From: Thermoanaerobaculia bacterium
GTDB lineage: Bacteria; Acidobacteriota; Thermoanaerobaculia; UBA5066; Gp7-AA6
Reading direction: 5' to 3'
DNA length: 63,290 nucleotides
NCBI GenBank assembly: GCA_038229875.1
Contig: JBBROA010000005.1
Coordinates: 1-63,290 of the forward strand
Under the pieces are notes generated by a model that made no database searches, had not been told where the DNA came from, and saw only the letters and a program-made list of their open reading frames with translations. Shown piece by piece: positions 6,729 to 59,946 of the stretch (position 1 is the stretch's first letter; each line of letters begins with the position of its first letter). The translations under genes were made by a program, and so were the position numbers.

Positions 6729-6984
6729 GCCCCTCACACCGGCCCTCTCCCCGGCGCGCGGGGAGATGGAGCAGAGCTGCGCTTCGGGCGAGATGGTGGT
6801 TAAGTTCGTCACGAGAGGAGTCTCCTGACCGAAGGGAAGGAGGAGCCTCTCGTGACGGGAGCCGCAGCGAACGAAGGGACGAGGCGGGCGGTGGAGGCCG
6901 CATCCGGCCGACCCGCCCGCCGGTGCCGTACGCGGCGCGAACGGCACGTCCCGCAGTGAGGGGAGGCGACGTTAGGCGACGGCC
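6729..6984. repeat. ~250 bp structured repeat, full copy A
   Basis: Colinear with 21847-22095; REP-like left end, long hairpin, multibranch stem. Confidence 0.9.
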
Positions 6985-7920
6985 TTACTTCAGTTCGACT
7001 TCGTCGCCGACCTGGAGCATCCGGCTCGAATCCGTCAGGCGGACCACGGACCAGCGATCGCCTACGTTCAGCACGGCGCCTTCGCCGAGATATGTCCGGG
7101 GAATGGACACTCCAGCCGGCGGGGGGAGCGTGACCCAGTAGGTCCCCATCGCTTTGATCCCGTACTCCCGCCCGGAGGAATACCGGTACAGGGTCAGGAA
7201 GTCGCCGGGTTGCACGCCGTCGGCGGCGCCGAGGTCCACGATCACCATCTGGTCCGCGCCGAGGGCCACGACGCCGTCGCGGCTGAACACGATCCGCCCA
7301 CGGGCTTTCCCGGACGGAAGATCGCCCGATTTCGCCATGGGCGACCTGCGGGCGAGAGGAATCGGGATCGGCTCGAACTTTTTCAAGGACGCGAACATCG
7401 GGATGTCGGTGCAGGCGCTCGTGACGTGGACGATCGCCGTCCTCGGCTCGACGCTCGACACCACAGCGCGCCCGCGATACTGGTAGAACTGCCCCATCGA
7501 GCGTTCCGTGACGGGATGGATGACGTCCTGCTCCGGCGTCACGATCCAGTACTGGTCGCCGATCCTCAGGCCCGCGTCGTATCCGCCGTCGACGTAGAGG
7601 ATGTCGTCGGTGATGTAGTCGGTCTGCTCGAAGAGATTCTCCGCGCCGTGGATGTGCAGCGGGAAGTGCTCGCGCGGTGCGCCGATGTAGCCGAAGCAGT
7701 AGACGTCGCTCTCGAAGCCGATCGGCTGCGGAGCGGACTCCGTCGTGACGGGAACGTGCCGCGGGCGCTCAACCCTCGTGACGACCGGTGTCGCACTCTG
7801 CGTCTCGGGCCCGAGCTTCGCGCCGCCGAGCGGCGCGGGTCTGGCGGTCTGCGCAATTCCCGGCGCCGACCAGATCATGGCGAGAGACAGCAGGACGTAA
7901 GAACGCGCGGGGAGGCGCAT
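6985..7920 (-). CDS. Secreted beta-rich hypothetical protein (resembles C-terminal region of LysM/TsaP-like or FlgT-C proteins)
   Basis: Signal peptide, DILYVDGG, VIVDLGAADGVQPGD, QVGDEV; AGGAG RBS. Confidence 0.65.
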   Translation of the reverse strand: MRLPARSYVLLSLAMIWSAPGIAQTARPAPLGGAKLGPETQSATPVVTRVERPRHVPVTTESAPQPIGFESDVYCFGYIGAPREHFPLHIHGAENLFEQTDYITDDILYVDGGYDAGLRIGDQYWIVTPEQDVIHPVTERSMGQFYQYRGRAVVSSVEPRTAIVHVTSACTDIPMFASLKKFEPIPIPLARRSPMAKSGDLPSGKARGRIVFSRDGVVALGADQMVIVDLGAADGVQPGDFLTLYRYSSGREYGIKAMGTYWVTLPPPAGVSIPRTYLGEGAVLNVGDRWSVVRLTDSSRMLQVGDEVELK

Positions 7921-7930
7921 GGCGGCTCCT

Positions 7931-7964
7931 AAAAAATTACGGTCAAACAGGGATTGTACCGTAA
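7931..7964 (-). terminator. Hairpin plus U6 tract after bamD
   Basis: Minus strand TTACGGT-acaatccctgtttg-ACCGTAA followed by TTTTTT. Confidence 0.45.
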
Positions 7965-7991
7965 ATTACTCGCTCTTCCTCCCGCTGTCAA
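7963..7991 (-). promoter_or_regulatory. Sigma70-type promoter in the bamD 3' end
   Basis: TTGACA-17 nt-TAATTT on the minus strand. Confidence 0.6.
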
Positions 7992-8790
7992 CGGAAGCCG
8001 TGGCCGGAGGGGGCTGCCTGGGCCCTTTCCCTCTGGCTTTCTTGACGAATTCGCTCGCCGGAAACTCCTCGAGGAGCCGGGCGTAGTACCGCGAGGCCTC
8101 CTCCTGACGGCCCAGGCGGCGCAGAACCTCCCCCTCGTAAAAGAAGAGCTTGTCGCGCCGTCCGTATTCCGGGAACCGCTCCTCGAGCGAGGCGAAGCGG
8201 GCCAGCGCGGCCCCCGGGGCTCCCTTGCGCATATAAAAATAGCCGACCGCAAACTCGTGCTCGGCGAGCAGGTCGACCAGGGCGTGGATGCGGGCATTCG
8301 CCGCCGCCGAGTGTCCCGTGTTGGGAAACTCCCGCAGGAGCGCCCGGTACTGGTCGATCGCCTCGCGGGTCGAGGTCTGGTCCCGATCCGGCTTCTCGTG
8401 CTCGCGGTCGTAGCAGACCGCGAACTGGTAGCGCGCGTAGTCGCGCTCGCTCGCCCCGGGATAGCGGTTTAAGAAGTCCCGGTAACGGAATCGCGCCTCG
8501 GTGTAGCCGGTGGTGCCTCCCTGCCGGAAGAAGGAGTCGGCGACCATGAGGAGGGCCTGCCGGCCGAGAGGGTCGTTCGGGTAGGTCTCGAAGACGAAGC
8601 TCAGGTACTTGCGCCCGGCGTCGAATTTCTTCTTCTCGATCAGCGCCTTGCCCTTCTCGAAGAGCCCCTCCTTCGGGGTCGAGAGCAGCTCGGTCGTGAT
8701 CTTGTCGGGTTTCTTGTTGCCGCTCGAAGCGCAGCCCGCGGCGATCAGCACCGCCGCCAGGATCGCCGCGAGTCTTCCTCGGATGTTCAA
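7966..8790 (-). CDS. bamD: Outer membrane assembly lipoprotein BamD
   Basis: Lipobox-like IAAGC, TPR helices, RDQTST, LAEHEFAVGYFY; TTG start with GGAGGAG. Confidence 0.9.
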   Translation of the reverse strand: MNIRGRLAAILAAVLIAAGCASSGNKKPDKITTELLSTPKEGLFEKGKALIEKKKFDAGRKYLSFVFETYPNDPLGRQALLMVADSFFRQGGTTGYTEARFRYRDFLNRYPGASERDYARYQFAVCYDREHEKPDRDQTSTREAIDQYRALLREFPNTGHSAAANARIHALVDLLAEHEFAVGYFYMRKGAPGAALARFASLEERFPEYGRRDKLFFYEGEVLRRLGRQEEASRYYARLLEEFPASEFVKKARGKGPRQPPPATASVDSGRKSE

Positions 8791-9458
8791 ACTCTCACTC
8801 CTCCCCGGGCAGCCGCCCGGAGTCTCTCGATGGCGGCTCTCGGGTCTTCCTGACCGTAAACCGATGTGCCTGCAACCAGAATTTCCGCCCCGGCCGACGC
8901 GAGGTCCGCGGCATTCGTCGAGTCGACTCCCCCATCCACCTCGATCTCGGCCCCGCTGCGGAACTCCAGGACCGCCTCGCGGAGGCTCCGCACCTTCGCG
9001 ACGGAGTGCGGCAGGAACGCCTGCCCTCCGCGGCCGGGGTTCACGGACATGACCACGGCGTAGTCCAGGTCTCCCCACGAGTCCGAAAGCGAAGCGACCG
9101 GAGTCGCGGGATTCATCACCGCGCCGGCGCGGGCGCCTCCCCGCCGGATCACGTCCAGGCACCTCTGGAGATGCCGGGTCGCCTCGACGTGGACGGAAAT
9201 CCAGTCGGCGCCGGCGTCCAGATACCGGTCGAGCGTCTGCTCCGGGTTCTCGATCATCAGGTGCACGTCGAGAGGCAGCCGCGTAGCCCGCTTCAGAGCC
9301 TTCACGACGGGAGGCCCGAGCGTCAGGTTCGGGACGAAGTGGCCGTCCATGACGTCGACATGGATGAGGTCGGCTCCCCCCTCCTCGGCGATCGCGAGAG
9401 CGTCCGCCAGGCGCGCGAAGTCGGCAGACAGGAGAGACGGCGCGATCCGGACCTTCAT
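8787..9458 (-). CDS. rpe: Ribulose-phosphate 3-epimerase
   Basis: IAPSLLSADF, HVDVMDGHFVPNLT, MSVNPG, VDGG. Confidence 0.97.
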   Translation of the reverse strand: MKVRIAPSLLSADFARLADALAIAEEGGADLIHVDVMDGHFVPNLTLGPPVVKALKRATRLPLDVHLMIENPEQTLDRYLDAGADWISVHVEATRHLQRCLDVIRRGGARAGAVMNPATPVASLSDSWGDLDYAVVMSVNPGRGGQAFLPHSVAKVRSLREAVLEFRSGAEIEVDGGVDSTNAADLASAGAEILVAGTSVYGQEDPRAAIERLRAAARGGVRV

Positions 9459-10201
9459 CGGGCCGCCGGGGGGAATGAGGTGTCAGACGCGCGGGACACC
9501 GTCACCGAAACGACTTCCTTCGAGGACAGCGCAGATCCCGCCGTCGGAAACTGCTTCAGGATCGTGTTGGGTGGCACCCCTTCGTACGACTCGAAGCGCG
9601 CGCTTCCCACCCGGAAACCGTAGGCCTCGAGCCGCGAGCGCATCAACTCCGCGTCCTTTCCGACGAGATCCGGCATCACGTAGCGGGTCTCCGGGAGGCC
9701 GCGATTGGTGAGAACCGCGATCGGCGCGTTCTTTCCGACGGGAAATTCCGGCTCCGGGTCCTGGGCGACTATGCCGATCCGGGCGGTCGGATCGCGGTAC
9801 CAGGAGAGCGCGCCGAGCTGAAGCGTCTCCTGCGCCAGCCGCAGCGCGGCCGCCCGTGGAGGCAGTCCGGAGAGGTCCGGCACGCGCAGCTCCCGGGGCC
9901 CGAGGGACAGGACCACGCGGACGAGCTGCGAGGGCTTCGCGAGCGAGCCGCTCTCGGGAGACTGGGTCAGAACCAGGTTGCGAGGGATTTTGTCGTCGTT
10001 CCGGGCCCGTCCGGCCTGCTCGTCGACCTGCAGGCCAGCGTCGTGCGAGATCCGGATCGCCTCGGGGAGGGACTTTCCCACGAGATCCGGGACGGTCACC
10101 GAACGGCCCACGATCGAGCTCTCGAAGGCGAGCCAGGCGCCGCCTAAGAAGATGACGACGAGCAGAAACAGGTAGACAACCCGAAAAAGGACCCGGCGCA
10201 T
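9455..10201 (-). CDS. Membrane-anchored protein with three PASTA domains
   Basis: N-terminal TM; repeats beginning VPDLVG, VPDLSG, MPDLVG. Confidence 0.9.
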   Translation of the reverse strand: MRRVLFRVVYLFLLVVIFLGGAWLAFESSIVGRSVTVPDLVGKSLPEAIRISHDAGLQVDEQAGRARNDDKIPRNLVLTQSPESGSLAKPSQLVRVVLSLGPRELRVPDLSGLPPRAAALRLAQETLQLGALSWYRDPTARIGIVAQDPEPEFPVGKNAPIAVLTNRGLPETRYVMPDLVGKDAELMRSRLEAYGFRVGSARFESYEGVPPNTILKQFPTAGSALSSKEVVSVTVSRASDTSFPPAAR

Positions 10202-10289
10202 CGAGAAAACGTAGCACAGGGGGGGTAGCTCTCAGCGGACCGCTGGCACGTTTGACCTACGGCTCATGATTTGCAACCCTAGGCCTTCA

Positions 10290-11297
10290 ATGGACTATCC
10301 GACGCCAACGCCGAAGCCGAAGCCGGACGACGACGAGATTCCCGCCTGGTTCTCGGACGCCCGGTTCAAGAAGGCGGATCTTCACTGCCACTCGGTCTAC
10401 TCGACCTTCAAGTACTTCCGAATCGCGAATACCCGCGATTCCTACAACCGGCCGGAAGAGGTTTACCGGGTGGCCAAGGAGAGGGGCATGGATTTCGTCA
10501 CGCTGACGGACCATGACTCGATCGACGGCTGCCTCTACCTCTTGAATCAAAACCCGGACCTCGACGATTTCTTCATCTCGGAAGAGGTCGAGACGTGGTT
10601 TCCCGACACCCGCCAGCGCATCCACGTCAACGTCTTCGACATCGACGAGCGCCAGCACCGGGAAATCCAGCGGCTGCGGGAGAACATCTACGACCTGCAT
10701 GCCTGGTTGAAGCAGGAAGGGATCCTCGCCTCCGCGAACCACATGTTCCAGAACTACAGGATGCGGAATTCGCCGCGGCAGTACTTCGAAGAGATGCTCC
10801 GGATGTTCGACGTCTTCGAGGTGAAGAACGGCGCGATGGCCTCGCAGCACAACCGGCTGATCGAGGACCTCATGGCGGTCGTCCGCGAGAAACGAGGCGC
10901 GGTGTCGCTCGTCGCGGGCTCGGACGCCCATACTCTCGCTCCGCTCGCCAAGGTGTACACCGTGGCCGAGGCGGAGACCCCTCGCGAGTTCCTGGCGCGC
11001 ATCCGCTCGGGCGAGTGCTTCGTCTGGGGAAGCGAGATGGGTTTCCGGGTCCTGCTGTCGGACGTGTACCAGATGGTGTTCCGGTACTACGGCAGCGTGC
11101 TCGACTGGCGCAATCCCGAATTCACCCGGGGCGAGAAGGCCCGGCACCTGGCGCTCGCCGCGATGGGCGCGCCGTTCTCCGCCGCTGGAGTTCCGTTCGC
11201 GCTGACCTCGCTCAACTACCTGAAGCAGATCTTCGTCTCGCGCCGGATCGGGCAGGAGCTCCTCGAGAAGATCGCGGACCCCGAGAAGCCTTCCTGA
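10290..11297 (+). CDS. PHP-domain metal-dependent phosphoesterase
   Basis: DLHCHS, TLTDHD, EVKNG, GSDAH; alternative start 10266. Confidence 0.85.
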   Translation: MDYPTPTPKPKPDDDEIPAWFSDARFKKADLHCHSVYSTFKYFRIANTRDSYNRPEEVYRVAKERGMDFVTLTDHDSIDGCLYLLNQNPDLDDFFISEEVETWFPDTRQRIHVNVFDIDERQHREIQRLRENIYDLHAWLKQEGILASANHMFQNYRMRNSPRQYFEEMLRMFDVFEVKNGAMASQHNRLIEDLMAVVREKRGAVSLVAGSDAHTLAPLAKVYTVAEAETPREFLARIRSGECFVWGSEMGFRVLLSDVYQMVFRYYGSVLDWRNPEFTRGEKARHLALAAMGAPFSAAGVPFALTSLNYLKQIFVSRRIGQELLEKIADPEKPS

Positions 11298-12256
11298 TTC
11301 GGAGAGCGGACGCTCCGCCGGCCGAAGCTCTGGGGAGTCCCGCGCTCCGCGGGGCCGGGCGAAAAGGAGAAACCTCCGCCGCGGGCGCGGACCTCCTGAT
11401 CGGCGCTCACCATTCGATCGCGGGAGGAACGCCGCGCGCCGTCGAGCGCGGAATCTCCACCGGCTGCCGCGTCCTGCAGATTTTCGTCAAGAACAACAGC
11501 CGCTGGGTGGGCAAGGAAATCACGGACAGAGAAGCTCGGCAGTTTCGGCGGACATCCCGGGCCGCGTCGTTCTCCCACGTCGTCGCGCACGCCTCCTATC
11601 TGATCAACCTCGGCTCCCCGGCCGCCGCGCTTCGCGCCCGGTCAGCGGCGGCGCTCGCGGACGAGATCGCTCGCTGCGGCCGCCTCGGCATTCCGGCCCT
11701 GGTGCTCCACCCGGGTTCCCACGGCGGAGAGGGCGAAGCCGTCGGTATCCAGAGGATTGCCGACGGTCTCGACGAGGCGCTCGACCGCACGGCGGGCGTG
11801 CGCGTGCGCGTGCTCCTCGAGACCGCCGCGGGGCAGGGCAACTCCGTGGGCCACCGGTTCGAGCATCTGAGGGACATCCTCGGAGCCGTCCGGCGCCCCC
11901 GCCGCGTCGCGGTCTGCTTCGACACGTGCCACGTCCACGCCGCCGGCTACGACGTCGTGTCGCGCCGCGGCTGGGACGAGACGGTCTCTTCTCTCGCGGC
12001 CACGGTAGGGCTCGATCGCCTCCACGCGATCCACGTGAACGACTCGAAGCGCCCGCGCGGCTCCCGCGTCGACCGGCACGAGCACATCGGACGCGGCACG
12101 ATCGGAGAGGCGGGGTTTCGCAATCTGCTCTCCGACACGCGGCTCTCGGCGATCCCGAAGTTTCTCGAGACGCCGAAGGATGAGGCCCTCGACTTCGATC
12201 GGAGCAACCTCGAGACGCTCCGCCGCCTGGCGGCGTCCGGGCCGCCCGGCGACTGA
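11294..12256 (+). CDS. nfo: Endonuclease IV (start uncertain)
   Basis: GAHHSIAGG, HASYLINL, HPG, ETAAGQG, DTCH, HVNDSK, DRHEHIG, ETP; no nearby ATG/GTG/TTG. Confidence 0.9.
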   Translation: MIRRADAPPAEALGSPALRGAGRKGETSAAGADLLIGAHHSIAGGTPRAVERGISTGCRVLQIFVKNNSRWVGKEITDREARQFRRTSRAASFSHVVAHASYLINLGSPAAALRARSAAALADEIARCGRLGIPALVLHPGSHGGEGEAVGIQRIADGLDEALDRTAGVRVRVLLETAAGQGNSVGHRFEHLRDILGAVRRPRRVAVCFDTCHVHAAGYDVVSRRGWDETVSSLAATVGLDRLHAIHVNDSKRPRGSRVDRHEHIGRGTIGEAGFRNLLSDTRLSAIPKFLETPKDEALDFDRSNLETLRRLAASGPPGD

Positions 12257-12300
12257 GGGGGTACGCCGCGCGAAAGCGCCCGAAGTATCCTTCCCGTCGC

Positions 12301-13322
12301 ATGCACGACGGCCACGAACCGCCCACCAACTCGACGACGGCGGTTGCTGAACAGTTCTGGGATCATCACCACGGGAACACAGAGAGCCCCCGGTTCTGGA
12401 TGGCGCAAGCACTCTGCCGCTCGGCGATCAATCGCAGAGTCACCGGAAATCCGAACGAGTGGCCCCTGGAATGGTTCGCGCGCCTCTACGGACCGCTGTC
12501 GAAGGGCCTTTCGCTGGGATGCGGGGTCGGGAACCTCGAGCGCTCCATGCTGGACATCGGAATGTGCGAGGAAATCACGGGCATCGACTTTTATTCGAAG
12601 TCTATCGAGATCGCGCGGGAACGCGCTCAAGAAGCGGGATATGGCGATCGGCTGAACTATCGCGTCGGAGATCTTAATCACCTGCGGATTCCGTCAGCGA
12701 CATACGACGTGGTGTTCATCCACCAGGCGTTGCACCACGTCGTGGCCATCGAACGACTCCTCGCGCGCGTCGCTCGGTCGCTCAAGCCCGAGGGACTCGT
12801 ATTCGTAGATGAGTGGACGGGCCCTTCCATGACGGGGTGGACTCCGGAGATGGTCGCAGTTCAGTCCGCGCTCTATCGCGAGGTTCCTCGGGAGTGGCGA
12901 CGCTACTCAGAATTCGTGCTTCCGATTTCGGCGGATGATCTCACTGAGGGAATACGGTCGGCGGCGTTTTTGCCGGCGGTCCGCAATTTTTTTGGCCGGT
13001 CGAGGTCCGTCCCTACGGCGGTCACGTCGCGGCGCTTCTGATGTCGCAGATCGACACTGCCCCGAGTGAAGCGCTGGACCCATTTCTGAAGCAGTGGTTC
13101 GGGATTGAGGACGATGAACTTCGATCAAACCCGTCCTGCGGTTACCATCACGTGATCATCGGACGTCCTCGCCGCGGTCTGGCCGCGCAGATGGCCGCTC
13201 TTTTCGGTCTGGCTCTCCACGCCCGGATGGGCGTCGCATACAGAGTCGCCGCGGCAACAAACCTCGTGAAGCATCTCGCCCACCAGAGTCCGGTCTGGAA
13301 AGTCTTTCGACCGCCGCCATAA
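12301..13322 (+). pseudogene. Class I SAM methyltransferase split by one frameshift at a T7 run
   Basis: LSLGCGVG, QALHHV, DEWTGP; family-like tail VEVRPYGG... continues in the -1 frame after 12993. Confidence 0.75.
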
Positions 13323-13336
13323 CTCGGGGCGACGAG

Positions 13337-15715
13337 TCAGGAACCTGAAGCTTTGTTCATTGCTCGGCGACGAACCGCGCCCCACCCAATCAGTCCCAGG
13401 AAAGAAGCCGCGCTCAACGCGGCGCCGACCACGAAACCCGCCGGCATATAGCGGAGCTCGACTTCGTGCTGGCCGGGGGCCGCGGCGAACCCCAGAAACG
13501 CGTGGTTGTATCGCAGCAGGGTCGCTGGCACACCGTCGATTCGGAGCTGCCAACCCTTCCACGCGGTGATCGAGGTCCCGATCAACGAGGGGGATTGAGC
13601 CACTACCCTCATCGCGAACTTTTGAGGCGAATAGGAGCGGGTCTCGACCGCAGCCTTGCCGTTCGGGATCCAGACTCCTGGCTGCATCCCCGCGAGACTT
13701 TCCACGATCCCCTGATGCTCGAAGTTCTTTATATCGCCCAGCAACCTCAGCCTCTTCTGCCCCTCCGGCTCGACCAGGAATTGCTCCGGGACGAAGACAC
13801 GCGGCAACACGTTCGGGTTCTCGGCCAGCCGCAACCCGAGTTCTTCTCGGATCGTTCGCCATCCTGCAGGGATAGGAGTGATTCCCGGGATGAGGAAGTA
13901 CTTCACGTTCAGGAATGAAAGAAAGGGTTTGGACGGGTCGTCGACGCGGTTGAACCAGATCGGCTGTGGGACACACCACAGCGGGTAAGTCTCCTGGAGG
14001 GGCTTGAACGTCATCGCCTCGTAGCCCCTGACGTCTTCGAGCTCGTACAGCGCCGAAATGTTCGGCACAAAAGTGAACCCTACGGAAGTCGTTCGAAACG
14101 GTTGGTTGCGGGGTATCCCGTCGAGAAGATGGAGCGGCGGGTAAAAAGCTTTATTCGGCGCGACGGGGTACAGCGAGGACGCTTCCGACGACCTCTGGAT
14201 CATGACGATGCCGAGAAGGATGACGCCAGCGGCCCTCGCGCTCGCGCCCGCGGCAGACTTCGCGGACCACCACGCAAGAGCGAGACAGAGAGGAAGGAAC
14301 TGCAGCAGGAATTGCGCGTGAAGGTAGTCGAGAGGCATCTGCAACGAGATGAGTCGGCCCTCCATGACGAGGTAAGCCGCAACGAACAGCGACACAGCAG
14401 CGACGAGGAGGAGCCGAAAAGCCCGGTCGGACGAACCCTCCAGAATCCTTTCCATCCCGAGCGCTGCGAGACCCGCAATGGCAAACGCCGCGAGAAATAC
14501 GAGGCGTTCGTTCAGCGCTATGTCGAAGAGCGGCAGAGCGGAGATCGCATCGGTAATCACCGGCGCCGAAGACCAGAGCGCCAGTCCCAATGCCCCGAGT
14601 CCCACCAGGGCCCATTTGAGTCGTCTCCTCGAAACGAGACCGAGAGCCGCCATCGGGAAAAGCACCGAACCCACGTAGGCGGTCGAAATCGACTGCCCCT
14701 CCGTTGCCCCTCCGTGACCCGAGCTGCCGAAAGCGTATGGGATGAAGAGCTGCTGAAGGCGAAAAATGGCCTTCGGTAGCGACACGGACTTCCTGATGTG
14801 GGCGTACCACGCATGGCGGAAGAAGTATTCGAAGGTCTGCGGCAGTGCCTCGAGATGCGGGAGAAGGATGACGGCTGTCAGACTCAGGGTGATCAGGCCC
14901 GCAAGCCCGGACAGAAGAATCGCTCGAATCCGGCTCCGACCTGTCTCCCCCTTGAGTACGAAGAGGAAATAGAGACCGGCGGCAGCGACGGCGTGTAGCA
15001 ACGTTTCGCTGTGACCTCCGGTCACGATCAGCAGGAGCGAAACCGTCGTTATGCCGACCCCCCGGGCGCTCCTCTGCTTCGCCAGAGTCGAGAGCCCCAC
15101 CAGGAGAAGCGGGAAAGGCGCTATCGCAGGAGACAGCGGATAGCCGAGAAAGAATAGAACGTAGTCGCTAAAGGCCCATCCGACCGCTCCAACGCAACAG
15201 GCCAGAAGAGGGAGCCCGAGGTCGGCGAAAAACAGCAAGGCGCACAGCAAGGCCATGAAAAGGGTGAAGGTCATCTCGAAAGTCCATGCCTGAGCGAGAG
15301 GCAGGAGCATCCCGATCCAGGTAGATGGGTGCAAGACGACGGGTTGCTGCATCGCAAGCAGTGGCTCGCCGGCGAGGATGTAACGATTCCAGAGCGGAAG
15401 ACGGCCGTTCTTCACGGCGTCCCGAACCGCTTTTCGCCACGGAATCTCCTGAGAGACGACATCGCCCAGGATGGGAGTTCTCGTCGGTCCGATTCCGACA
15501 TCGCCCGCGATCGCCGCAAGGGGATGCGCCTGATATGCGATGTCGAGAGGGGCGTATACCCCGCCGGTGAACATGGCCCGACCGGTGACGAGAAGAGGGG
15601 CGCAGGCTACAAAAATGCACGCTTGCCAGGGAATCCGCCGTACGTAGCGCCGCGCGAGAAATAGGCCTCCGCCTGTCGCGGCGAAGTACACCGCGAACGA
15701 CCTGAGAATCAACAT
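13337..15715 (-). CDS. YfhO-family (GT-C fold) polytopic membrane protein
   Basis: LPLWNRYILAGEPL, GGHSET, EDVRGYE, NPNVLPR, GW..RIDG, HEVELRY. Confidence 0.85.
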   Translation of the reverse strand: MLILRSFAVYFAATGGGLFLARRYVRRIPWQACIFVACAPLLVTGRAMFTGGVYAPLDIAYQAHPLAAIAGDVGIGPTRTPILGDVVSQEIPWRKAVRDAVKNGRLPLWNRYILAGEPLLAMQQPVVLHPSTWIGMLLPLAQAWTFEMTFTLFMALLCALLFFADLGLPLLACCVGAVGWAFSDYVLFFLGYPLSPAIAPFPLLLVGLSTLAKQRSARGVGITTVSLLLIVTGGHSETLLHAVAAAGLYFLFVLKGETGRSRIRAILLSGLAGLITLSLTAVILLPHLEALPQTFEYFFRHAWYAHIRKSVSLPKAIFRLQQLFIPYAFGSSGHGGATEGQSISTAYVGSVLFPMAALGLVSRRRLKWALVGLGALGLALWSSAPVITDAISALPLFDIALNERLVFLAAFAIAGLAALGMERILEGSSDRAFRLLLVAAVSLFVAAYLVMEGRLISLQMPLDYLHAQFLLQFLPLCLALAWWSAKSAAGASARAAGVILLGIVMIQRSSEASSLYPVAPNKAFYPPLHLLDGIPRNQPFRTTSVGFTFVPNISALYELEDVRGYEAMTFKPLQETYPLWCVPQPIWFNRVDDPSKPFLSFLNVKYFLIPGITPIPAGWRTIREELGLRLAENPNVLPRVFVPEQFLVEPEGQKRLRLLGDIKNFEHQGIVESLAGMQPGVWIPNGKAAVETRSYSPQKFAMRVVAQSPSLIGTSITAWKGWQLRIDGVPATLLRYNHAFLGFAAAPGQHEVELRYMPAGFVVGAALSAASFLGLIGWGAVRRRAMNKASGS

Positions 15716-15779
15716 GGGGCCGTGAGAGTAGTTTACGGCTCGCCCTGGCGCAACGATTTGCCGCCGGCGGTCACGCCGA

Positions 15780-16633
15780 TCATCGGGCGACGATCACCGC
15801 GTAATAGGGAGGAGACCCCCGCGCGAGCGCTGATCTCTCGCATTCAATGAGATGAGCAACGACCTCCGCGCTCGGTTTCCGACGAGCGGGAAAAATCAAC
15901 GTGAGGGTAAATCACCGACAGAAACGTGCCGCCGTAATTGCGTTGGAGCTCGATCGAAAATCTCAGCGAAACTTCCCGAACGATTTCAGACGAATCGCCT
16001 CGCTCGGATCCTTCCCATCCACTGATAGTGAAGGCGGCGTCGGCGGCGCGCTCCCGCCGGGAGTTTTCGGTAGACTTCGTCGGCATCCCGCAGGAGATCG
16101 CGTCTCCATTCCATTTGGGAAGGCCCGATGTATTCGTCCATGTACACCAGCCCTCCCGGACGGAGCGCAGCGCGAACGACGTCGAGGCAACTTTCCAGAT
16201 TCGATACGTGAAGGAGAGACTGCTGGAAAAACGCGCCGTCGCAAGACCCTTTCTCGAGCGTGAGCCGATTCAGGTCGCCCAGGACGTACCTCATTCGCGT
16301 GAGTCCCCGTTCCGATGCCCGCCGGCGCGCGACCTCGAGCGATCTGGAGGCGATGTCGATTCCGGTCAGCGATGCGCAGATTCCGCCTTCGCGAAGGTGC
16401 CGATCGAGAGTCCCGTTTCCGCGACCCAGGCTGACAGCGTGGTCCATCGAGCCGAGTCCCGGGGACAGGCCTTCGAGCAGCCAGAGGTTGGGATCCCCGG
16501 TGACGGACTCGTTCACGTAACGTCGTACGGCCGGCTCGTGAAGCCAGGTCGTCAGCGGCTCACCTTCGGAGAAACGGCCCCAGAACCGCGCCGTTTTGGC
16601 GAGCCGCAGGCGCTTCATCATCTGGAAAGCCAC
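15780..16633 (-). pseudogene. Class I SAM methyltransferase relic, paralog of 12301-13322, three frameshifts
   Basis: YVNESVTGDP, SLGRGNG, DEYIGPS, then DPSEAIR, SSEIV..RNYGGT and EVVAHLIECE..YYAVIVAR, each after a frame change. Confidence 0.8.
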
Positions 16634-16701
16634 GGGGCCTCGATCACCTCAGATTGTTCGTGGATCAGACTGGATGGCATGACGATGGGCAACCGCGTCT
16701 G

Positions 16702-17145
16702 ATGTCCCGGTTCTTCAGTTCCGTTGCCCGGGATTTCATACTGCTGACCGGCGCGATCTTGATGGCGGGGCTCTCGGTGGCGAAGCTGCGACCGTTTCAC
16801 GACGTTTTCCACCTGCCCGAGAGTCCTTTGGATAGATCGCACCCGACCTCCGCTCCGGCGTTCCTTTTTCTGCAGGCCGTCGAACGGGAGATCCCTCCCG
16901 GAGAAAGCGTGACGCTCATCACGGAACCCCGGGACCCGGGCCGAGAGACGGCACTTTTCGGCATGTCCGTCGCGCTGCTTCCCGGCCAGACCCTGCTCCC
17001 CTCGTCGCAATGGAGCGCCTTTACGCCGGAACTTTCCGCCGGCGCCCACTACCTCATCGTGCTGGGGAGTCGCCCCGACTCGCCTCCCGGCACTTTGATT
17101 TACGAGGACTCCCGGGGTTCGGTTTGGAAGCGAGCACTCAGATGA
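16702..17145 (+). CDS. Small membrane-anchored hypothetical protein
   Basis: N-terminal hydrophobic helix; ATGA overlap with next gene. Confidence 0.6.
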   Translation: MSRFFSSVARDFILLTGAILMAGLSVAKLRPFHDVFHLPESPLDRSHPTSAPAFLFLQAVEREIPPGESVTLITEPRDPGRETALFGMSVALLPGQTLLPSSQWSAFTPELSAGAHYLIVLGSRPDSPPGTLIYEDSRGSVWKRALR

Positions 17146-18485
17146 GGACCGGGTTCATCTGGCTCGCAACTTTTCTTGCTTTTCCATTGGCTGGTTGGCC
17201 TCTCCTCTCTCATCGGGCCTATCGCCGCCTCGGATTGACGTCCCGGTTCGTGCTCTCCGGTGCGGTCGGGTGCGTCACCGTCACCACCGTCATGACCGTC
17301 TCAACAGTCCTGGGTATCCGCTGGTACCCGCCTTTGATCCTGCTTTCGGCCGCACTCGTATCGGGCGCGGCCCGGCTCCTCGTCGGAGACTCCCAAGACC
17401 GGCTACGCGTTGCCGAACAAGGTCGCCTTCAATGGGCGGAGGGGGTCGCGCTCGGTGTCATCTTCGTCTCGGTGTCCGCCGCGACCCTCGCCGCCAGTTC
17501 CGCCGCTGTCACCTCCGCCGATCTCTTCCTCTTCTGGGGCCCGAAGGCCATGGCGTTCGCAAGAGCGCGCGGCATCGACTCGGCATACCTCGGCGATCCC
17601 GTGCTCCGATACCAACACTTTTCTTACCCGCCTCTCGTGCCAAACGCCTATGCCTTCGCTACTCTCGTGGCCGGCCGTTTTACATGGATGTCCGCGGTGA
17701 TGACGTTTCCGCTGCTCCTGGCGTCGCTCGTTCTCGCGTTGCCGGGAGTTCTTGGGTCATGGTGTTCGCGGAGAAGCGCTTTCGTCGCTACCGCATGTAT
17801 GGGAGCGTCGCTTGCCCTGATCGGTCAGGAGTACCTGGTCGGCGGCAACGCGGATTTTTCGCTCCTGTTGTTCGAGGTTCTTGCCGTCGCGCTGCTCTCG
17901 GGAACGCAACCAGTTGATCGGGCCTCCGCTTTTCTGGCAGGGATTCTTCTCGCCGGCGCTTCCGCCGCGAAAGTCGAAGGTCTTCCGTTCGCCATCTGTG
18001 CGGGGCTGTTGTTCGTTGCATTCGGGAGACGAGGGGGATCGGGACGTCTCGCCGCTTCCGCCCTCGTTCTTGGCCCGAGCGTGTTCGTTACGGCCCTATG
18101 GTTCGGATTTGAAAAGGCGCGGCTCGGATTCTTCGGGTACGAAACGTACGGCCCGTTCCTCGCCGCCGACTGGAAATCTCTCGGACTGGTTCTCTGGAAA
18201 ACGGCCGCGGCTCTCGCGGATGCCGGGCGGGGCTTTCCCTGGATTGTGCCTGTGGCGGCGATCGCAGTCGCCTTTCGGCTCCGGCGCGAAGCACTCGTAG
18301 CCTTCGGGACGGCGATGACTCTCGCGGCCTTTTTCGTCTTCACATACCTGCACGGCGGAGGCGACCCGACTCTTTGGATCATCTGGTCCGCCGGACGGAT
18401 TTTTGCCGTGATCTCACCGATGCTGGTCATCAGTTCACTCCACGGCAGGGAAAAGACCTTCACCTCTGACACGCCGTCCATCTAA
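17142..18485 (+). CDS. Polytopic membrane protein, probable GT-C glycosyltransferase
   Basis: DLFLFWGPKA, HFSYPPLVP, AKVEG and many TM helices. Confidence 0.7.
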   Translation: MRTGFIWLATFLAFPLAGWPLLSHRAYRRLGLTSRFVLSGAVGCVTVTTVMTVSTVLGIRWYPPLILLSAALVSGAARLLVGDSQDRLRVAEQGRLQWAEGVALGVIFVSVSAATLAASSAAVTSADLFLFWGPKAMAFARARGIDSAYLGDPVLRYQHFSYPPLVPNAYAFATLVAGRFTWMSAVMTFPLLLASLVLALPGVLGSWCSRRSAFVATACMGASLALIGQEYLVGGNADFSLLLFEVLAVALLSGTQPVDRASAFLAGILLAGASAAKVEGLPFAICAGLLFVAFGRRGGSGRLAASALVLGPSVFVTALWFGFEKARLGFFGYETYGPFLAADWKSLGLVLWKTAAALADAGRGFPWIVPVAAIAVAFRLRREALVAFGTAMTLAAFFVFTYLHGGGDPTLWIIWSAGRIFAVISPMLVISSLHGREKTFTSDTPSI

Positions 18486-18491
18486 GGCCAT

Positions 18492-20837
18492 CTAACGGTC
18501 AACCAGCAGGCTGGGTGGGCGCATCCCGGCACGCGTCTTGGCGGAGCGACGTCCGCCCGCGAGCGCCGCTGCCACCCCGAGGCCGCATGCCAGGAGTCCG
18601 GGGAGGAAGGAGGGCGGGCGATAGGTCACGCGCATGTGGTGCGTCCCCGCCGGTACGCGGATCCCGACGAACGCGTGGTTCACCGTCTCGATCGGATACG
18701 CACGGCCTTCCTCCAGCGCGCGCCAGCCGGGCCAGTCCGGAAGGGATGTCGCCGCGAGGAACGGCGCGTCGGACGCGCTGTCGAGGAGCAGGTCCGGCCC
18801 GGATTCGCGCGCGAAGATCCGCGCCGGCGGGTTCTGATCGGAGCGCGGCGCGCCGCGGACCCACACGGTTTCGGAAAACTCCGACGCCGCGCGCATCGCC
18901 GAGAGAACCGACGCCCCGTCGGGAAATGAGATCACGCGCGCCGGCACGAACGCGCGCGGAAGGGCGCGAGGGTTCTCGAAGACGGCGGTATCCCCGGAGC
19001 GGGCGTGCACGTCCCAGCCCGGCGGAAGCGGCGCGTCGGGGGCGTCGATGGCGTATCGCAGACCCAGAAAGGAAAGGAACGGCCGGTTGAGGTCGTCGAT
19101 TCGGTTGAAGGAAGCGTGCTGCGGGACGCACCAGAGCGGAAACGTGTCGGCGAAGCGGTCGAGCACGATCGACTCGTATCCGCGCACGTCTTCGAGTCCG
19201 AGGAGGGCGGCGCCGTTCGGCTCCAGGTTCGCACCGGTCGCTCCGACGCGCGCCCCGTGGCGGAGACCCGCGAGCACGGACGAGGACGGCGAGAGAGCGC
19301 GCGCGTCCACCGTGGGATAGGTCCCGCTCATTTCGAGAGCACGCTCGGAAACGAGCAGAGCGAGGGCCGCCGCCGCGAGCTGGGCCGCGCGGTTCCGCCA
19401 GAAGAGCGCGGCCGCCCCGAGCAGCGCGACAGGAAAGGTCTCGAAGAAAAAGTGCGAACGAACGAAGGCGGAGGGAAGCGCGCGTGCGTTCAGGACGCCC
19501 GCTGCGGCGAATCGGACCACGATCAGGCCGAGGAGAACCGCCCCCGCCGCCGCGGCGAGGCGCCGCGAACCGCCGGAACGAAGCTCGTCGGTGCCGAGCG
19601 CGGCGAGTCCCGAAATCCCGAGCGCCGACAGAAATACCAGGCGGTAGTTCAACGCGAGCGAGAACCCGGGCAATCGGGAGAGAACGTCGAGCAAGCCCGG
19701 CGCGCTCGCGCCGAGGAGCAGGCCGGCGGCGAGGAAGCTCAGGGAGAGGGCGCGTCCCTTCCGGCGGCGCGACGCGCCGAGGGCCGCGAGGGGAAAGAGC
19801 ACAGCTCCCGCAAAGGCGAGCGGCATCCCCGAGCCGTCGCCACGCTCCTGCACCGGGCTCTTGCCGTAGATCCCGTGCGCGAACGGGAGAACCGCGGGCA
19901 GGAGGCGGCGGACGGCCTGCGAAAGGGCCACGGACTGGCGCTCGACTCCCTTTTCGAGCTGCGCGCGGCGGTCGCGGTACTCCGCGGAATGGGGGATCGC
20001 CTCCAGCAGCGGGAAGAGCTGTGGCGCCGCGAGCAGAAATGCGAGCGCGGCCGCCGCGGCTCCACGGAGGAGGGCGCGGCGGACGTCGCCCCCGGCGCCC
20101 CGTCGCGCTGCGACGACCAGGTCCGCAACGAAGACCGCCGTCCCCGCCATCGCGGTGTGGAAAAAGGTTTCGGGGTGCCCGCCCGACAGCGAGAGGAGGA
20201 GCGCCGCCACCGTGATCGCCCGGCCGTTCGCGCCGTTTCGCGCGATCCGCCTGAGGCCGAGCAGCAAGAGCGGGAACGTCGCGGTGGACGGGCCGACGCT
20301 CCACCCGTTCCAGAAGACGAGGTAGGTGGAAAACCCCCAGCCCACCGCGCCCGTCAGCGCCGCGGTCAAAGAAAGATCCCAGTCTCGAAAGTAGAGGTAT
20401 CCGGACAGGAGCCCGAGGAACAACGTGAAAGCGCAGGAGAACGTCCACGAGAGCGGCAAAGGCAGGAAGATGCCCGCCCAGGTGGCGGGATGGAAGACCC
20501 CCGCCTGCGCGGTCGCGAGGAGAGGGTTTCCGGCGAGAACGAACCGATTCCAGAACGGAAGACGCCCGTTCGTCAGGGCCTCGCGCACCGCTGCGCGCCA
20601 CGGGATGTTCGCAAACGCGAGGTCCGAGAGAACCGGGTTCGCGGGAGGGGAAGGGACCGCGCCCGCGTGGCGCCACGGGACGAGCGGCGGGTAGAGATCC
20701 GCCGGGCCGTACACCGCTCCGGAAAACATGGCCCTGCCGGTGAAGACGAGCGGCAGCAGGAGAAGCAGGAGGCCGGCCGTCCGGGAGACCTGCCCCGCGT
20801 AGCGGCGCGCCAGCCAGAGCGAGCCGGTGGCCGCCAC
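18492..20837 (-). CDS. Second YfhO-family membrane protein
   Basis: LPFWNRFVLAGNPL, GGHPET, EDVRGYE, NPRALPRAF; start may be an in-frame CTG at 20876. Confidence 0.85.
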   Translation of the reverse strand: MAATGSLWLARRYAGQVSRTAGLLLLLLPLVFTGRAMFSGAVYGPADLYPPLVPWRHAGAVPSPPANPVLSDLAFANIPWRAAVREALTNGRLPFWNRFVLAGNPLLATAQAGVFHPATWAGIFLPLPLSWTFSCAFTLFLGLLSGYLYFRDWDLSLTAALTGAVGWGFSTYLVFWNGWSVGPSTATFPLLLLGLRRIARNGANGRAITVAALLLSLSGGHPETFFHTAMAGTAVFVADLVVAARRGAGGDVRRALLRGAAAAALAFLLAAPQLFPLLEAIPHSAEYRDRRAQLEKGVERQSVALSQAVRRLLPAVLPFAHGIYGKSPVQERGDGSGMPLAFAGAVLFPLAALGASRRRKGRALSLSFLAAGLLLGASAPGLLDVLSRLPGFSLALNYRLVFLSALGISGLAALGTDELRSGGSRRLAAAAGAVLLGLIVVRFAAAGVLNARALPSAFVRSHFFFETFPVALLGAAALFWRNRAAQLAAAALALLVSERALEMSGTYPTVDARALSPSSSVLAGLRHGARVGATGANLEPNGAALLGLEDVRGYESIVLDRFADTFPLWCVPQHASFNRIDDLNRPFLSFLGLRYAIDAPDAPLPPGWDVHARSGDTAVFENPRALPRAFVPARVISFPDGASVLSAMRAASEFSETVWVRGAPRSDQNPPARIFARESGPDLLLDSASDAPFLAATSLPDWPGWRALEEGRAYPIETVNHAFVGIRVPAGTHHMRVTYRPPSFLPGLLACGLGVAAALAGGRRSAKTRAGMRPPSLLVDR

Positions 20838-20995
20838 GGTATAGGTCGCGCACAGGGCGACGGTCTCGAGTCTCAGGATGGCGGATGTTACTTGACCGGG
20901 AAGGTTGAGAGTCGAGTTGAGTTCACGGCGGCAGTCGGGAGTCGAGATTCGAGATTAGACTCACGGTCGAGTTCTGACCTTCAGGTCCCTGAACC

Positions 20996-21811: not shown

Positions 21812-21846
21812 AGATCGCGTCGGCCTGTCATCTTCAGCCCGGCTGA

Positions 21847-22095
21847 GCCCCTCACCCCTGCTCCCGCCGGGCGAGGGAGCGGAGGTGCGCTTCCGCCGAC
21901 ATGGTGGCTAAGCTCGCCACGAGAGGAGTCTCCCGACCAGAGGGAGGGAGGAGCCTCTCGGGGCGGGAGCCGCAGCGAACGGAGGGACGAGTCGAGCGGT
22001 GGAGGCCGCATCCGACCGACCCGCTCGGCGGTGCCGTTCGCGGCGCGAACGGCACGTCCCGTAGAGAGCGGCGGCGACGGCAGCGGAGGCGACGA
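21847..22095. repeat. ~250 bp structured repeat, full copy B
   Basis: Colinear with 6729-6984; ends at the TAG of rseP. Confidence 0.9.
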
Positions 22096-23457: not shown

Positions 23458-23481
23458 GCGACTGCTCCGTTTCTCGTTTTC

Positions 23482-54286: not shown

Positions 54287-54360
54287 TGGCTGGGAGGCAG
54301 GGAGTCGAACCCCGATTAACTGGTCCAGAGCCAGTGGTCCTACCATTGAACGACCTCCCA
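54287..54360 (-). tRNA. tRNA-Gln (CTG), CCA encoded
   Basis: TGGGAGG acceptor stem, ACTGG-CTCTGGA-CCAGT anticodon arm, GGTTCGACTCC T arm, GCCA end. Confidence 0.97.
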
Positions 54361-55073: not shown

Positions 55074-55090
55074 GGCGCCTCCTGAATTGC

Positions 55091-58565: not shown

Positions 58566-58579
58566 GAAGCGGAGCGGGC

Positions 58580-59740
58580 GTGTCAGACGAGATTTACCCC
58601 GCGCCCGCGCGGCGATTCGCGTCGGTCGGATTCTCCGAGATCGTCCAGGTCCGGAATCGCGTTCTCGCGCTGCTCGCGCAGGGGCATCGCGTCTGGCGCT
58701 TCGAGGGCGGCGAGCCGTACATGCCGACCCCGGAGCCGATCAAGGCCGCGATGACCGCCGCTCTCGCCCGCAACGAGACCCGCTATGCGCCCTCCTCCGG
58801 GGTCCCGGAGCTGCGGCGGGCGATCCTGGCGAAGGTGAGGGACAGAAACCAGATCCCCGCGGATGACGAGAGCCCGATCGTCGTGAACGGCGGAATGCAC
58901 GGCCTCTTCGCGGCGTTCGCGACGCTGCTCGATGAGGGAGACGAGGTCCTGATGCTGTCGCCGTACTGGACGCCGATCGTCGACGTCATCCGGTACCACG
59001 GCGCCGCGCCTGTGCTCGTCTCGGCCGAGGAGGCGGGCCGCGACGGCTTGACCGCGGCGCTTTCCAGAAAGCTTTCGAAAAAGACGAAACTCCTTTACTG
59101 GAACTCGCCGACGAACCCGACCGGGCAGGTCTTCTCGCGCGCGCAGGTCGAGGAGGTCGCCGCGTTCGTGAACGACCGGGGTCTCGCGCTGATCTCCGAC
59201 GAGGCGTACGAGGACCTGATCTACGAAGGAGAGGGGCACGTCTCCCCCGCCTCGTTTCCGGGTCTCTCCGAGCGGACCATCTCCGTCTTCACGATGTCCA
59301 AGACCTACTCGATGACGGGCTGGCGCGCCGGGTACGTCATCGTGCCGAAGCGCTGGCGTGCCGCCATTCAGACCGCGGTCCTGTATTCGATCAACGGCGT
59401 GTCGACGCCGACGCAGTGGGCGATGCTGGAAGCCCTGGCGATGCCGCCGGACTTTCTCGAAGAGGCGAAGGCGGGATATCGACGCCGCCGGGATGCTCTC
59501 GTGGCGGGCCTGCGCTCTGCCGGGTTCGAGCTCGAAACCCCGCGCGCGGCGCTCTACCTCTTCCCGAAAATCCCCGCGTCTCTGGGGGCGGGCTCTACCG
59601 CCGCGGCCACCGCACTCCTCGACACGAAGCGGATTGCGACCGTGCCCGGAATCGTCTTCGGACCCGAGGGAGAAGGGCATCTTCGGTTCTCGTTCTCCGT
59701 GCCGGAAGAGACGATCCGTGGGGGGATAGAAGCGCTTTAG
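58580..59740 (+). CDS. PLP-dependent aminotransferase class I/II (aspartate aminotransferase-like)
   Basis: GEP, NSPTNPTG, DEAY, SKTYSMTGWRAG. Confidence 0.92.
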   Translation: MSDEIYPAPARRFASVGFSEIVQVRNRVLALLAQGHRVWRFEGGEPYMPTPEPIKAAMTAALARNETRYAPSSGVPELRRAILAKVRDRNQIPADDESPIVVNGGMHGLFAAFATLLDEGDEVLMLSPYWTPIVDVIRYHGAAPVLVSAEEAGRDGLTAALSRKLSKKTKLLYWNSPTNPTGQVFSRAQVEEVAAFVNDRGLALISDEAYEDLIYEGEGHVSPASFPGLSERTISVFTMSKTYSMTGWRAGYVIVPKRWRAAIQTAVLYSINGVSTPTQWAMLEALAMPPDFLEEAKAGYRRRRDALVAGLRSAGFELETPRAALYLFPKIPASLGAGSTAAATALLDTKRIATVPGIVFGPEGEGHLRFSFSVPEETIRGGIEAL

Positions 59741-59837
59741 CGGCGGCGGGTCAGGGTCGCACGGAGGCCGCTTCAATCGGCGCATCGCGATGTCGGCCTG
59801 GTCAGCTCCAAGTCGAACCAAGACCGCCTATCTGCGG

Positions 59838-59946
59838 GCCCCCGCACCCCCACCCACCCCGAGCGCGGGGAGAGCGAGTAAAGCTGCGCCGCTGGACCGT
59901 GGCTCGCCCGAGCGGTCGCAATGGGCGGAAGCGACGTACGAAAACG
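59838..59946. repeat. Short, internally deleted and diverged copy of the structured repeat
   Basis: Left part ccccgagcgcggggagagcgagtaaagctgcgc resembles copy A; right end including the stop is 23/33 identical to 13-45; ends at a TAA. Confidence 0.6.

Follow-up and report, generated by a model that had tools for sequence, protein, structure and literature searches.

REP-type repeats (repetitive extragenic palindromic sequences) are among the commonest non-coding features of bacterial genomes, and both the spread of the classes that have no transposase and the preference of these repeats for the ends of genes are unsettled. In the portion of PMC3733652 on which we draw, REPs are sorted by a GTAG or a CGTC end tag and lie less than 20 bp from the 3' ends of open reading frames (ORFs), between unidirectional and convergent ORFs. 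The ends of GTAG REPs frequently supply a TAG stop codon, and CGTC REPs are without a dedicated transposase. The CGTC families described in the same portion, in which dRS3 is classed as CGTC-1, have an 8-9-bp stem starting with two A.T pairs, a 4-5-nt loop and a CCA tail, and the five phyla listed there for them do not include the Acidobacteriota. In Escherichia coli, according to the part of PMC12306157 used here, REPs that stand no more than 15 nt from a stop codon stall ribosomes and lower translation. Here we analyse a contig of 63,290 nucleotides (the window) from an uncultured Thermoanaerobaculia bacterium (Acidobacteriota) of soil, in which a large, modular and palindromic repeat element occurs in four copies, each meeting the stop codon of a neighbouring gene at its right end.

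The source metagenome-assembled genome (MAG), designated G000, comprises 4.33 Mb in 252 contigs, has 67% G+C and is 96.8% complete; the window is its contig C5. Our analysis makes it reasonably probable that the family is a composite element of the REP and bacterial interspersed mosaic element (BIME) class with CGTC-type tags, one that has spread as single-stranded DNA at the replication fork and has been joined next to TA(A) sites.

Docking of the right end at gene boundaries

All four window copies lie on the + strand, and their right ends meet, in order of position, the stop codons TAA, TAA, TAG and TAA of genes on the minus strand. The preliminary description of this DNA had reported this arrangement, and alignment, profile search and ORF calls confirm it. 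Copy D (1-42) is cut by the contig start and holds only the right terminus with a partial terminal duplication, GGAGGCGACGGTTGGCGACG (nhmmer profile positions 235-281); copies A (6705-6984) and B (21841-22095) are full length; copy C (59829-59946; first delimited as 59838-59946) is a short form. Copies A (first delimited as 6729-6984; nhmmer 6705-6987) and B (first delimited as 21847-22095; nhmmer 21841-22082) can be aligned over 215 nt, with 87% identity, and the last 39 nt of copy D are common to A and B at 90% and 79% identity. Copy C is too degenerate to appear among the genome-wide nhmmer matches. A local profile search of a 200-nt stretch aligns it with positions 17-84 (E 2.8e-6) and 227-278 (E 0.005), and it is thus a left module in degenerate form to which the right terminus is attached (GGCGGAAGCGACG, then TACGAAAACG), with 10 nt separating GACG from TTA.

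The expectation that four copies in one contig imply many more in the genome was borne out. With copy A as query, blastn returns 167 high-scoring segment pairs in the source genome, and three rounds of nhmmer return 115, 163 and 180 matches, 94 of the final set spanning at least 180 of the 285 profile positions. Every one of these long copies is intergenic with respect to the called genes (3670 genes from a simple codon-usage caller, 88% coding). To their right stands a converging gene in 53 cases, a gene on the same strand in 35 and none in 6, at very tight distances; their left ends, by contrast with these, lie 7 to hundreds of nucleotides from genes and come within 4 nt in only 1 of 87 cases. 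The spacers of the 81 long copies for which both neighbours were called are unidirectional (51), convergent (20) or divergent (10), the corresponding numbers for the genome being 1707, 443 and 467.

Docking was counted with the terminal 16-mer, which at up to 2 mismatches matches 161 sites in the source genome; 29 of these lie deep within genes and look like chance, and 132 were kept. Of the 132 right ends, 54 have a converging stop codon at a distance of 0-4 nt and 3 stand at the 3' end of a converging tRNA gene; a same-strand start follows within 50 nt in 37 and at a greater distance in 21, and 12 are more than 20 nt away from a converging gene. The nhmmer search adds a gene for tRNA-Asn, so that 4 of the 46 tRNA genes of this genome are docked. 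A trinucleotide that reads as a stop on the opposite strand (TTA, CTA or TCA) follows the terminal motif within 0-2 nt in 65 of the 161 matches, as opposed to 6.4% at random intergenic positions, and a TA occurs 0-3 nt after the right end, at varying spacing, in 77 of them. The docked stop codons are TAA 42, TAG 7 and TGA 5, against 466, 846 and 2194 (13/24/63%) genome-wide (chi-square p 2e-43). Upstream of same-strand genes the boundary is instead a -10-like TAnnnT box: TANNNT begins within the first 12 nt in 29 of 38 cases, versus 11.7% at matched positions upstream of other genes. One such box (TAGAAT, contig C60) is shared by the sister genome G010 without an element abutting it there.

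The same pattern is found elsewhere. Of 78 right ends in further public MAGs, 34 are flush, at TAA 28, TAG 3 and TGA 3, and in four other genera 15 of 40 are flush to converging ORFs of 89-500 codons and 3 to genes for tRNA-Asn, tRNA-Arg and tRNA-Gln. The gene for tRNA-Asn is docked in two genera (G000, contig C146, 6462-6537; G019, 1664-1739), and the orthologue of the gene behind copy B (453 aa, 22096-23457, minus strand) is docked in G004 and in G020, which belongs to another genus; such cases may go back to shared insertions of old date or to a site having been used more than once. The preliminary proposal that the element targets TAA or TAG therefore holds in that both are strongly favoured at the right end. 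It falls short in that docking sites are of three kinds, stop codons being just one, and in that in at least one gene the stop was created at the junction and not targeted.

A folded sequence directly behind stop codons, with some junctions that read GTTAGGC (copy A, for example), also resembles the attC-type recombination site that follows gene cassettes in integrons. This explanation is close to refuted. The docked genes are core genes with element-free orthologues (glmS and a gene resembling that for EF-G), the copies are dispersed and do not stand in cassette arrays, the element at 170-280 nt is longer than attC sites as generally known, and its left end has no inverse core or partner of the GTTRRRY type (an integrase was not searched for).

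Element-free relatives allow native stops to be told from those made at the junction. The gene behind copy A (311 aa, 6985-7920, minus strand; TAA at 6985-6987) ends at the same codon in the element-free G002, G006 and G008, and the gene behind copy B (TAG at 22096-22098) does so in the element-free G006, G007 and G008. The glmS gene (G000, contig C8, 3649-5475) is the gene behind which Tn7 inserts in other bacteria. It keeps its conserved ...SVTVE end, with the element beginning one base after the TAA stop; the source genome reads TAA-CCGTCGCC and the element-free sister G013 reads TAA-CC. That the element always supplies the stop was considered and rejected, as glmS, the gene behind copy A and a gene for an FtsX-like permease (C10, 53150-54436) keep their native C-termini.

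The converse, a stop that is always native, was likewise rejected, on account of the EF-G-like gene on contig C53. Where docked, this gene ends in ..EV-TAA (G000), ..EV-TAG (G010), ..EG-TAA (G005) or ..EGT-TAG (G001); where undocked in published genomes, it ends in ..EGA or ..ENA followed by TGA in 5 of 6 (G002, G006, G007, G008, G009) or by TAG (G004). The unpublished G003 and G012 have TAA and TAG. The gene behind copy D (623 aa, 43-1914, minus strand; TAA at 43-45 directly after the copy) has TAA where docked in G000, G005, G009, G013 and the unpublished G003, and TAG in G011, which carries a short form; undocked, it has TAG in G001, G006, G008, G010 and the unpublished G012 and TAA in G002. 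The fourth docked gene of the window, behind copy C, encodes 256 aa (59947-60717, minus strand) and has its TAA stop at 59947-59949. Two further cases point to the tail as part of the element. In an array in G022, 5 of 7 internal unit junctions read GACGG and then TTA, CTA or TCA without a following gene, and a single copy in G013 occupies the entire spacer between two convergent genes and is flush at either end (TAA-T-CGTC...GACG-TTA). We read these junctions as evidence of a short variable tail, mostly TT(A), that is joined at TA-containing sites, the stop being kept or re-formed.

A bolder reading takes the element, which has no transposase of its own, to home to stop codons: its CGTC end would be joined at the fork in or behind stops, the stop would be rebuilt, mostly as TAA, from the tail, and the element would since have become a selected, lineage-wide 'end-of-gene' module of the Thermoanaerobaculia for dozens of core genes and tRNAs, setting translation termination or 3'-end behaviour. 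We think this quite unlikely. If true, it would offer a tractable model, with a readable target rule, for the spread of transposase-less (CGTC-type) REPs.

Modular anatomy and folding

The element measures about 170-280 nt and is made of palindromic modules that form four or five helices. From left to right it consists of an optional extension tCGAGnCTTGTCAGGCT, the motif CCCCTCAC, hairpin 1, a linker, the long hairpin 2, module 3 (GGGACG, hairpin 3a, hairpin 3b, CGTCCC) and the near-invariant terminus CCGCAGTGAGCGGAGGCGACG; the right terminus, ...GTGAGCGGAGGCGACG, hardly varies at all. Copy A starts with the left extension CTTGTCAGGCT..., which carries a TGTC tag. Its CCCCTCAC (6730-6737) is predicted to pair with GTGAGGGG (6956-6963) and to close a multi-branch fold (folding z-score -7.0), a helix that comes from minimum-free-energy folds and is without covariation support. 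Hairpin 1 (CCCTCTCCCC / GGGGAGATGG, 6743-6769) is the core of the left module. Hairpin 2 (CGTCACGAGAGG...CCTCTCGTGACG, 6805-6859), with 22 pairs and 98.2% pairing, is the module most conserved across genera. Module 3 (6876-6952) has a GGGACG/CGTCCC closing stem around hairpins 3a (6883-6921) and 3b (6922-6947), and the right terminus (6947-6984) reads CGTCCCGCAGTGAGGGGAGGCGACG, followed by TTA, a partial repeat GGCGACG, and GCC. In copy B the terminal motif is duplicated (GGCGGCGACGGCAGCGGAGGCGACGA).

Tags of the form CGTC, TGTC or GACG mark the module borders: the left terminus has TGTC or CGTC, module 3 is enclosed by GACG and CGTC, and the right terminus carries GACG. Beyond a tag of at most 4 nt, the left terminus tCGAGnCTTGTCAGGCT and the right terminus GGAGGCGACG have nothing in common. 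No target duplications and no long inverted repeats were found at the ends of copies, and no U-tract follows the hairpins. The element is non-coding; indels between copies have lengths of 1, 4 and other numbers that are not multiples of three.

Variation follows the modules. The left module is also found alone, and a 14-mer left motif has 222 matches in the source genome versus 161 for the right motif; short forms have lost inner modules but still end in the right terminus. On the left, the starts of copies are clustered where modules meet (about profile positions 2-8, 19-30, 56-80 and 150-160). The terminal 10-14 nt are tandemly duplicated in 27 of the 161 motif matches, and these duplications are polymorphic between sister genomes. 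A constant right end with a variable left start, tandem repeats of the terminal motif and junctions that vary by 0-3 nt, as GACG(G)(T)(T)|A, are also what a retro-element might leave behind, if an RNA with a fixed 3' end were copied by a reverse transcriptase into nicked TA-rich targets to give 5'-truncated copies with junction microhomology and terminal tandem repeats. We hold such an origin to be extremely unlikely: the left starts cluster at borders and form no continuum, there are no target-site duplications, a bias with respect to the replication strand (see below) is not expected of it, and no reverse transcriptase is linked to the element, though none was sought.

Structure is conserved well beyond controls. 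RNAalifold applied to 25 copies gives 55 pairs, 22 of them changed on both sides. Paired cells amount to 98.0% versus 88.4% in shuffled alignments, pairs changed on both sides to 22 versus 13.8, and the covariation score to 0.252 versus 0.089; none of 500 shuffles reaches the observed value in any of these measures. When the 3' partners are slid by 1-3 columns, pairing falls to 40-47%. In module 3 (helices 4-6), 16 of 27 pairs are changed on both sides. The hairpins first noticed by eye in the sequence are real and keep their structure through compensatory changes. The example of compensation drawn from copy B was only partly right, since its hairpin 2 (CGCCAC/GGGGCG) retains one A.G mismatch. 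The stem variants are few alleles, each common to several copies, and entire hairpin alleles distinguish the orthologous copies of G000 from those of G010. A large part of what looks like compensation may therefore reflect module exchange, subfamily structure or chimeric MAG assembly, and not repair at each locus. A test for purifying selection on the orthologous copies of G000 and G010 was dropped on account of these whole-hairpin differences, which gene conversion or MAG chimerism could produce.

Conserved structure suggests another explanation of docking, namely that docking reflects function and not a preference in insertion, and that the element is a cis-acting module under selection at each locus, either as a 3'-end structure that stops exonucleases or ribosomes or as transcription punctuation or an insulator. 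The family is conserved in 11 genera, and its stems are re-coded yet paired, with 98% of cells paired despite a median identity among copies of 81%. Two T.G wobble pairs are invariant, and the G-rich + strand gives the more stable fold in 24 of 25 copies. The first helix lies no more than 15 nt from the stop, which in the consulted part of PMC12306157 is the range where E. coli REPs lower translation. Selection for such a module at each locus is nevertheless unlikely in our judgement. The same end faces the gene whether the element is antisense to it (at stops) or sense (upstream of starts), so that no single RNA orientation would serve the neighbour. This argues against a single fixed role in the RNA of the 3' untranslated region as well, which the preliminary description had entertained, for the element is antisense to the docked gene and sense to the gene downstream. 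Moreover, the hairpins have no U-tract, close relatives lack the element at the same genes and have nothing in its place, the sharing of a few stem alleles fits subfamilies or module exchange, and no Rfam gathering score is reached.

Other small repeats touch the element or its sites. A second repeat of about 25-60 nt (GTCCACCATGTGTCCGGGCTGAACA or parts of it) lies within the loop of hairpin 1 in several copies of the source genome (C35, 6159-6483; C66; C57, 127-364; C106; C4, 32749-33008), which suggests another element that targets this hairpin. Many relatives carry tandem heptamers behind genes, for example (TTCTCAG)n followed by inverted (CTGAGAA)n, which form long hairpins where the source genome has the element; such arrays were seen in the 3' flanks of glmS in relatives and at the copy B locus of G006 and G007. 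The left extension of the element holds a similar unit, TGTCAGGC, present four times on contig C15 of the source genome. A direct repeat of 221 nt in the window (26291-26511 and 28378-28598, 78% identity) is unrelated to the element and probably represents paralogous coding segments.

Turnover, replication and a possible route of spread

The family is present in 23 of 23 genomes from 11 genera of its taxonomic family (20 of 20 without the unpublished G003, G012 and G023). Two sister families show weak matches only, in 1 of 9 and 3 of 7 genomes. The exact terminal 20-mer occurs in public records labelled as Thermoanaerobaculia or Acidobacteriota MAGs. It also occurs in MAGs labelled as an actinobacterium (L213) and a delta proteobacterium (L251), where its flanks are unlike the usual junctions; these could be due to chance, binning error or transfer. 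Units in other genera are usually shorter, covering profile positions of about 98-270, and head-to-tail arrays of 8 units in G022 and 3 in G014 were found. Many contigs of the source genome end inside a copy. Public contigs over 5500-23500 of the window likewise break inside repeats, where depth is about 20-fold that of the flanks; this indicates a multi-copy repeat that is hard to assemble and nothing beyond that, and among these public contigs none bridges an empty site at copy A or B.

Turnover is visible among related genomes. The element is absent from relatives at the loci of copies A and B, and the glmS site is filled in G000 and empty in G013. To the left of copy A, about 440 nt (6290-6700) have no counterpart in G002, G006 and G008, whose spacers measure 108-137 nt, and are present in G010. 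Among 17 copies compared in the sister genome G010, most are orthologous to copies in the source genome, and 2 of the 17 loci carry the element in the opposite orientation, its right end being flush each time to a different gene boundary. At other loci the difference between the two genomes is a precise hairpin-2 module of 60 nt or a deletion inside the copy. These flips and mosaics rest on short-read MAGs and need long-read confirmation.

Could the family be a non-mobile old repeat, shaped by homologous recombination, slippage and adjacent deletions, with purifying selection halting the deletions exactly where an essential base is first reached? The docking sites, of whichever of the three kinds, consist of the outermost functional bases of the neighbouring unit, the duplications of the terminal motif are polymorphic between sister genomes, junctions at one gene vary among close genomes, and the copies are old, all of which such a history would accommodate. 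It leaves the excess of TAA unexplained, however, and does not account for why the right end alone is flush (1 of 87 left ends), why orthologous spacers can hold the element in opposite orientations and why orientation is linked to replication, and we judge it very unlikely.

This orientation is clearest in near-complete genomes. With dnaA at 2.407 Mb in G014, 3.170 Mb in G019 and 2.419 Mb in G022, the + strand of the element coincides with the + strand of the genome to the left of dnaA and with the - strand to its right. Copies agree with this rule in 22 of 25 matches in G014 (p 1.6e-4), 21 of 29 in G019 (p 0.024) and 13 of 16 loci in G022 (p 0.021). Sampled in twenty 20-kb windows, the GC skew of G014 has a negative sign in 11 of 11 on the left replichore and a positive sign in 7 of 9 on the right, and it flips at dnaA. 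The switch of orientation at dnaA places the C-rich strand on the lagging-strand template. No more than 56.6% of the coding DNA of G014 is on the leading strand, so the bias cannot be put down to gene orientation. In the source genome, skew windows of +-40 kb give 59:30 in the same direction, and 25:11 for stop-flush copies, a weak to moderate effect. Alternatively, the bias may reflect selection against having the more stable, G-rich fold on the lagging-strand template.

For a REP/BIME-class element spread at the fork, the course of events may have been as follows. New copies would arise rarely, by a replication-coupled route through single-stranded DNA, with the C-rich strand (the reverse complement of the window + strand) on the lagging-strand template. 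The 5' end of that strand, CGTCGCC..., would be joined just 3' of a TA-containing site, typically TAA(C); at 67% G+C, such sites would mostly be stop codons and -10 boxes. The junction would usually read or re-form a stop codon, most often TAA. After insertion, whole hairpin modules could be lost, gained or exchanged and the terminal motif of 10-14 nt could slip, and module exchange together with terminal slippage would yield the short forms, the tandem arrays and the mosaic appearance. With a stable hairpin beginning 1-3 nt behind the stop codon, docked copies might, as REPs do in E. coli, reduce translation of the upstream gene or affect its 3' end. The leading candidate for the enzyme is a protein of the Y1/HUH type acting in trans.

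Of Y1 genes, the source genome has two (IS200-like, 317 aa each; C20, 1592-2545 and C48, 9643-10596) and G010, G014, G019, G020 and G022 together have 18, giving 20 loci in 6 genomes. The C20 gene is flanked by GGGGTCAGnCC-TGAAATCCTGA inverted repeats of TIRYT type, and the same holds around most Y1 loci in the five relatives. Loci with GGGGTCAG-type inverted repeats correspond to the TIRYT or subclass 2.1 type, with a DnaA-like C-terminal domain, as characterized in the part of PMC6006769 consulted. All 20 loci carry inverted repeats other than this element, and a link to a Y1 gene or a REP-associated tyrosine transposase (RAYT) was rejected for the loci examined. An autonomous parent was sought in 15 pairs of left and right motifs 0.3-6 kb apart; the 8 closest pairs enclose ordinary genes and no transposase. 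The initial view of a non-autonomous element, with neither a transposase inside or beside the copies nor long terminal inverted repeats, is in agreement with these results.

Several observations weigh against spread at the fork next to TA(A) sites. With a median pairwise identity in the source genome of 81%, a 99th percentile of 91.5% and no near-identical pairs away from contig ends, the copies are old, and recent transposition lacks support. Junctions flush to tRNA genes are mostly without TA. The spacer between GACG and the stop ranges over 0-4 nt and orthologous junctions differ between close genomes, which is unlike strict cut-and-paste at a fixed target. The better-folding strand is the G-rich + strand, while the lagging-strand template carries the other. 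A first skew test in the source genome, with windows of +-15 kb, showed no bias (40:50), a result since superseded by the near-complete genomes and the wider windows. The element does not occur within 1.5 kb of any of the 20 Y1 loci (nhmmer E <= 1), and no TnpB domain was found in the source genome, whose 96.8% completeness falls short of proving its absence. Lastly, the genomes are mostly short-read MAGs with contigs broken in the repeat, so that the mosaics and perhaps some flips could be assembly chimeras.

Comparison with known systems

The readable signature of the family (an invariant end, flush junctions, an excess of TAA, stops made at the junction and an orientation linked to replication) makes it a good test case, both for the model in which REPs spread as single-stranded DNA and for the effects of stop-adjacent hairpins on translation. 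On the practical side, the repeat breaks short-read assemblies of soil Acidobacteriota and can shift annotated stop codons and C-termini.

At the gathering thresholds of Rfam 15, only a tRNA at 54290-54360 passes in the window. The best Rfam match of copy A is PrrB/RsmZ (15.8 bits, threshold 44), and this and other sub-threshold matches (RsmZ, DUF3800-X, HgcE) were treated as chance. No description of the family was found in the literature on repeats of Thermoanaerobaculia or Acidobacteria or on stop-codon repeats; the supplementary REP lists of PMC3733652, which lie outside the portion consulted, might bear on this. As to whether the element belongs to a described family of REPs or miniature inverted-repeat transposable elements, the outcome is divided: no described family matches, but the kind is known.

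Modular mosaic intergenic repeats also include the Neisseria intergenic mosaic elements with dRS3 and the Correia elements, to which the element is similar in this respect. Correia elements, which insert at TA and are able to form -10 boxes and to change the expression of neighbours, have 26-bp inverted repeats and a TA duplication. The element described here has neither inverted repeats nor a TA duplication and no sequence similarity to them. Pneumococcal BOX elements are modular (boxA, boxB, boxC), of comparable length and variable in module number; we know of no transposase for them and of no tendency to sit flush on stop codons, and they differ from our family in phylum and in sequence.

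With the IS200/IS605 insertion sequences and the palindrome-associated transposable elements, the family shares hairpins near both ends and the lack of inverted repeats and duplications. One end of IS200/IS605 sequences is always flanked by a short A+T-rich target (TTAC for IS608), to which the TA near the right end of our element may correspond, at variable spacing and for the most part not at tRNA junctions. No matching TnpA/TnpB partner was found among the genes searched, and the element is far more structured than known insertion sequence ends. A further likeness to IS200/IS605 is an orientation tied to the lagging-strand template (PMC6006769, in part).

The CGTC-tagged REPs come closer. 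Like those in the consulted portion of PMC3733652, the element has CGTC, TGTC or GACG at its ends and at its inner hairpin pair, stands near 3' ends and is without a dedicated transposase; that portion does not permit the end and strand that the REP definition requires of the tag to be checked against the element. Unlike CGTC-1 to CGTC-4 as given there, its stems are G+C-rich and 9-14 bp long, its loops measure 4-21 nt, and it has no CCA tail.

The broadest resemblance is to the REP, BIME and REPIN-RAYT systems of E. coli and Pseudomonas. These too, in the parts of PMC3116915, 10.1101/2021.07.10.451892 and PMC6006769 on which we rely, are high-copy intergenic imperfect palindromes, often in inverted pairs and mosaics, that are vertically inherited over long periods, lie mainly after the 3' ends of ORFs and have no terminal inverted repeats or target duplications, and single-stranded DNA chemistry is thought to move them. 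Their units measure 20-40 nt, or about 100 nt as a doublet, whereas the unit here has 170-280 nt and four or five helices. No RAYT gene is flanked by the element, its docking is one-ended and flush, and it is the + strand that folds better. The family is thus an unusually elaborate variant of a known REP/BIME kind and not a new kind of system, and what sets it apart is its size, the one-ended flush docking on three kinds of boundary, the TAA signature and the orientation linked to replication.

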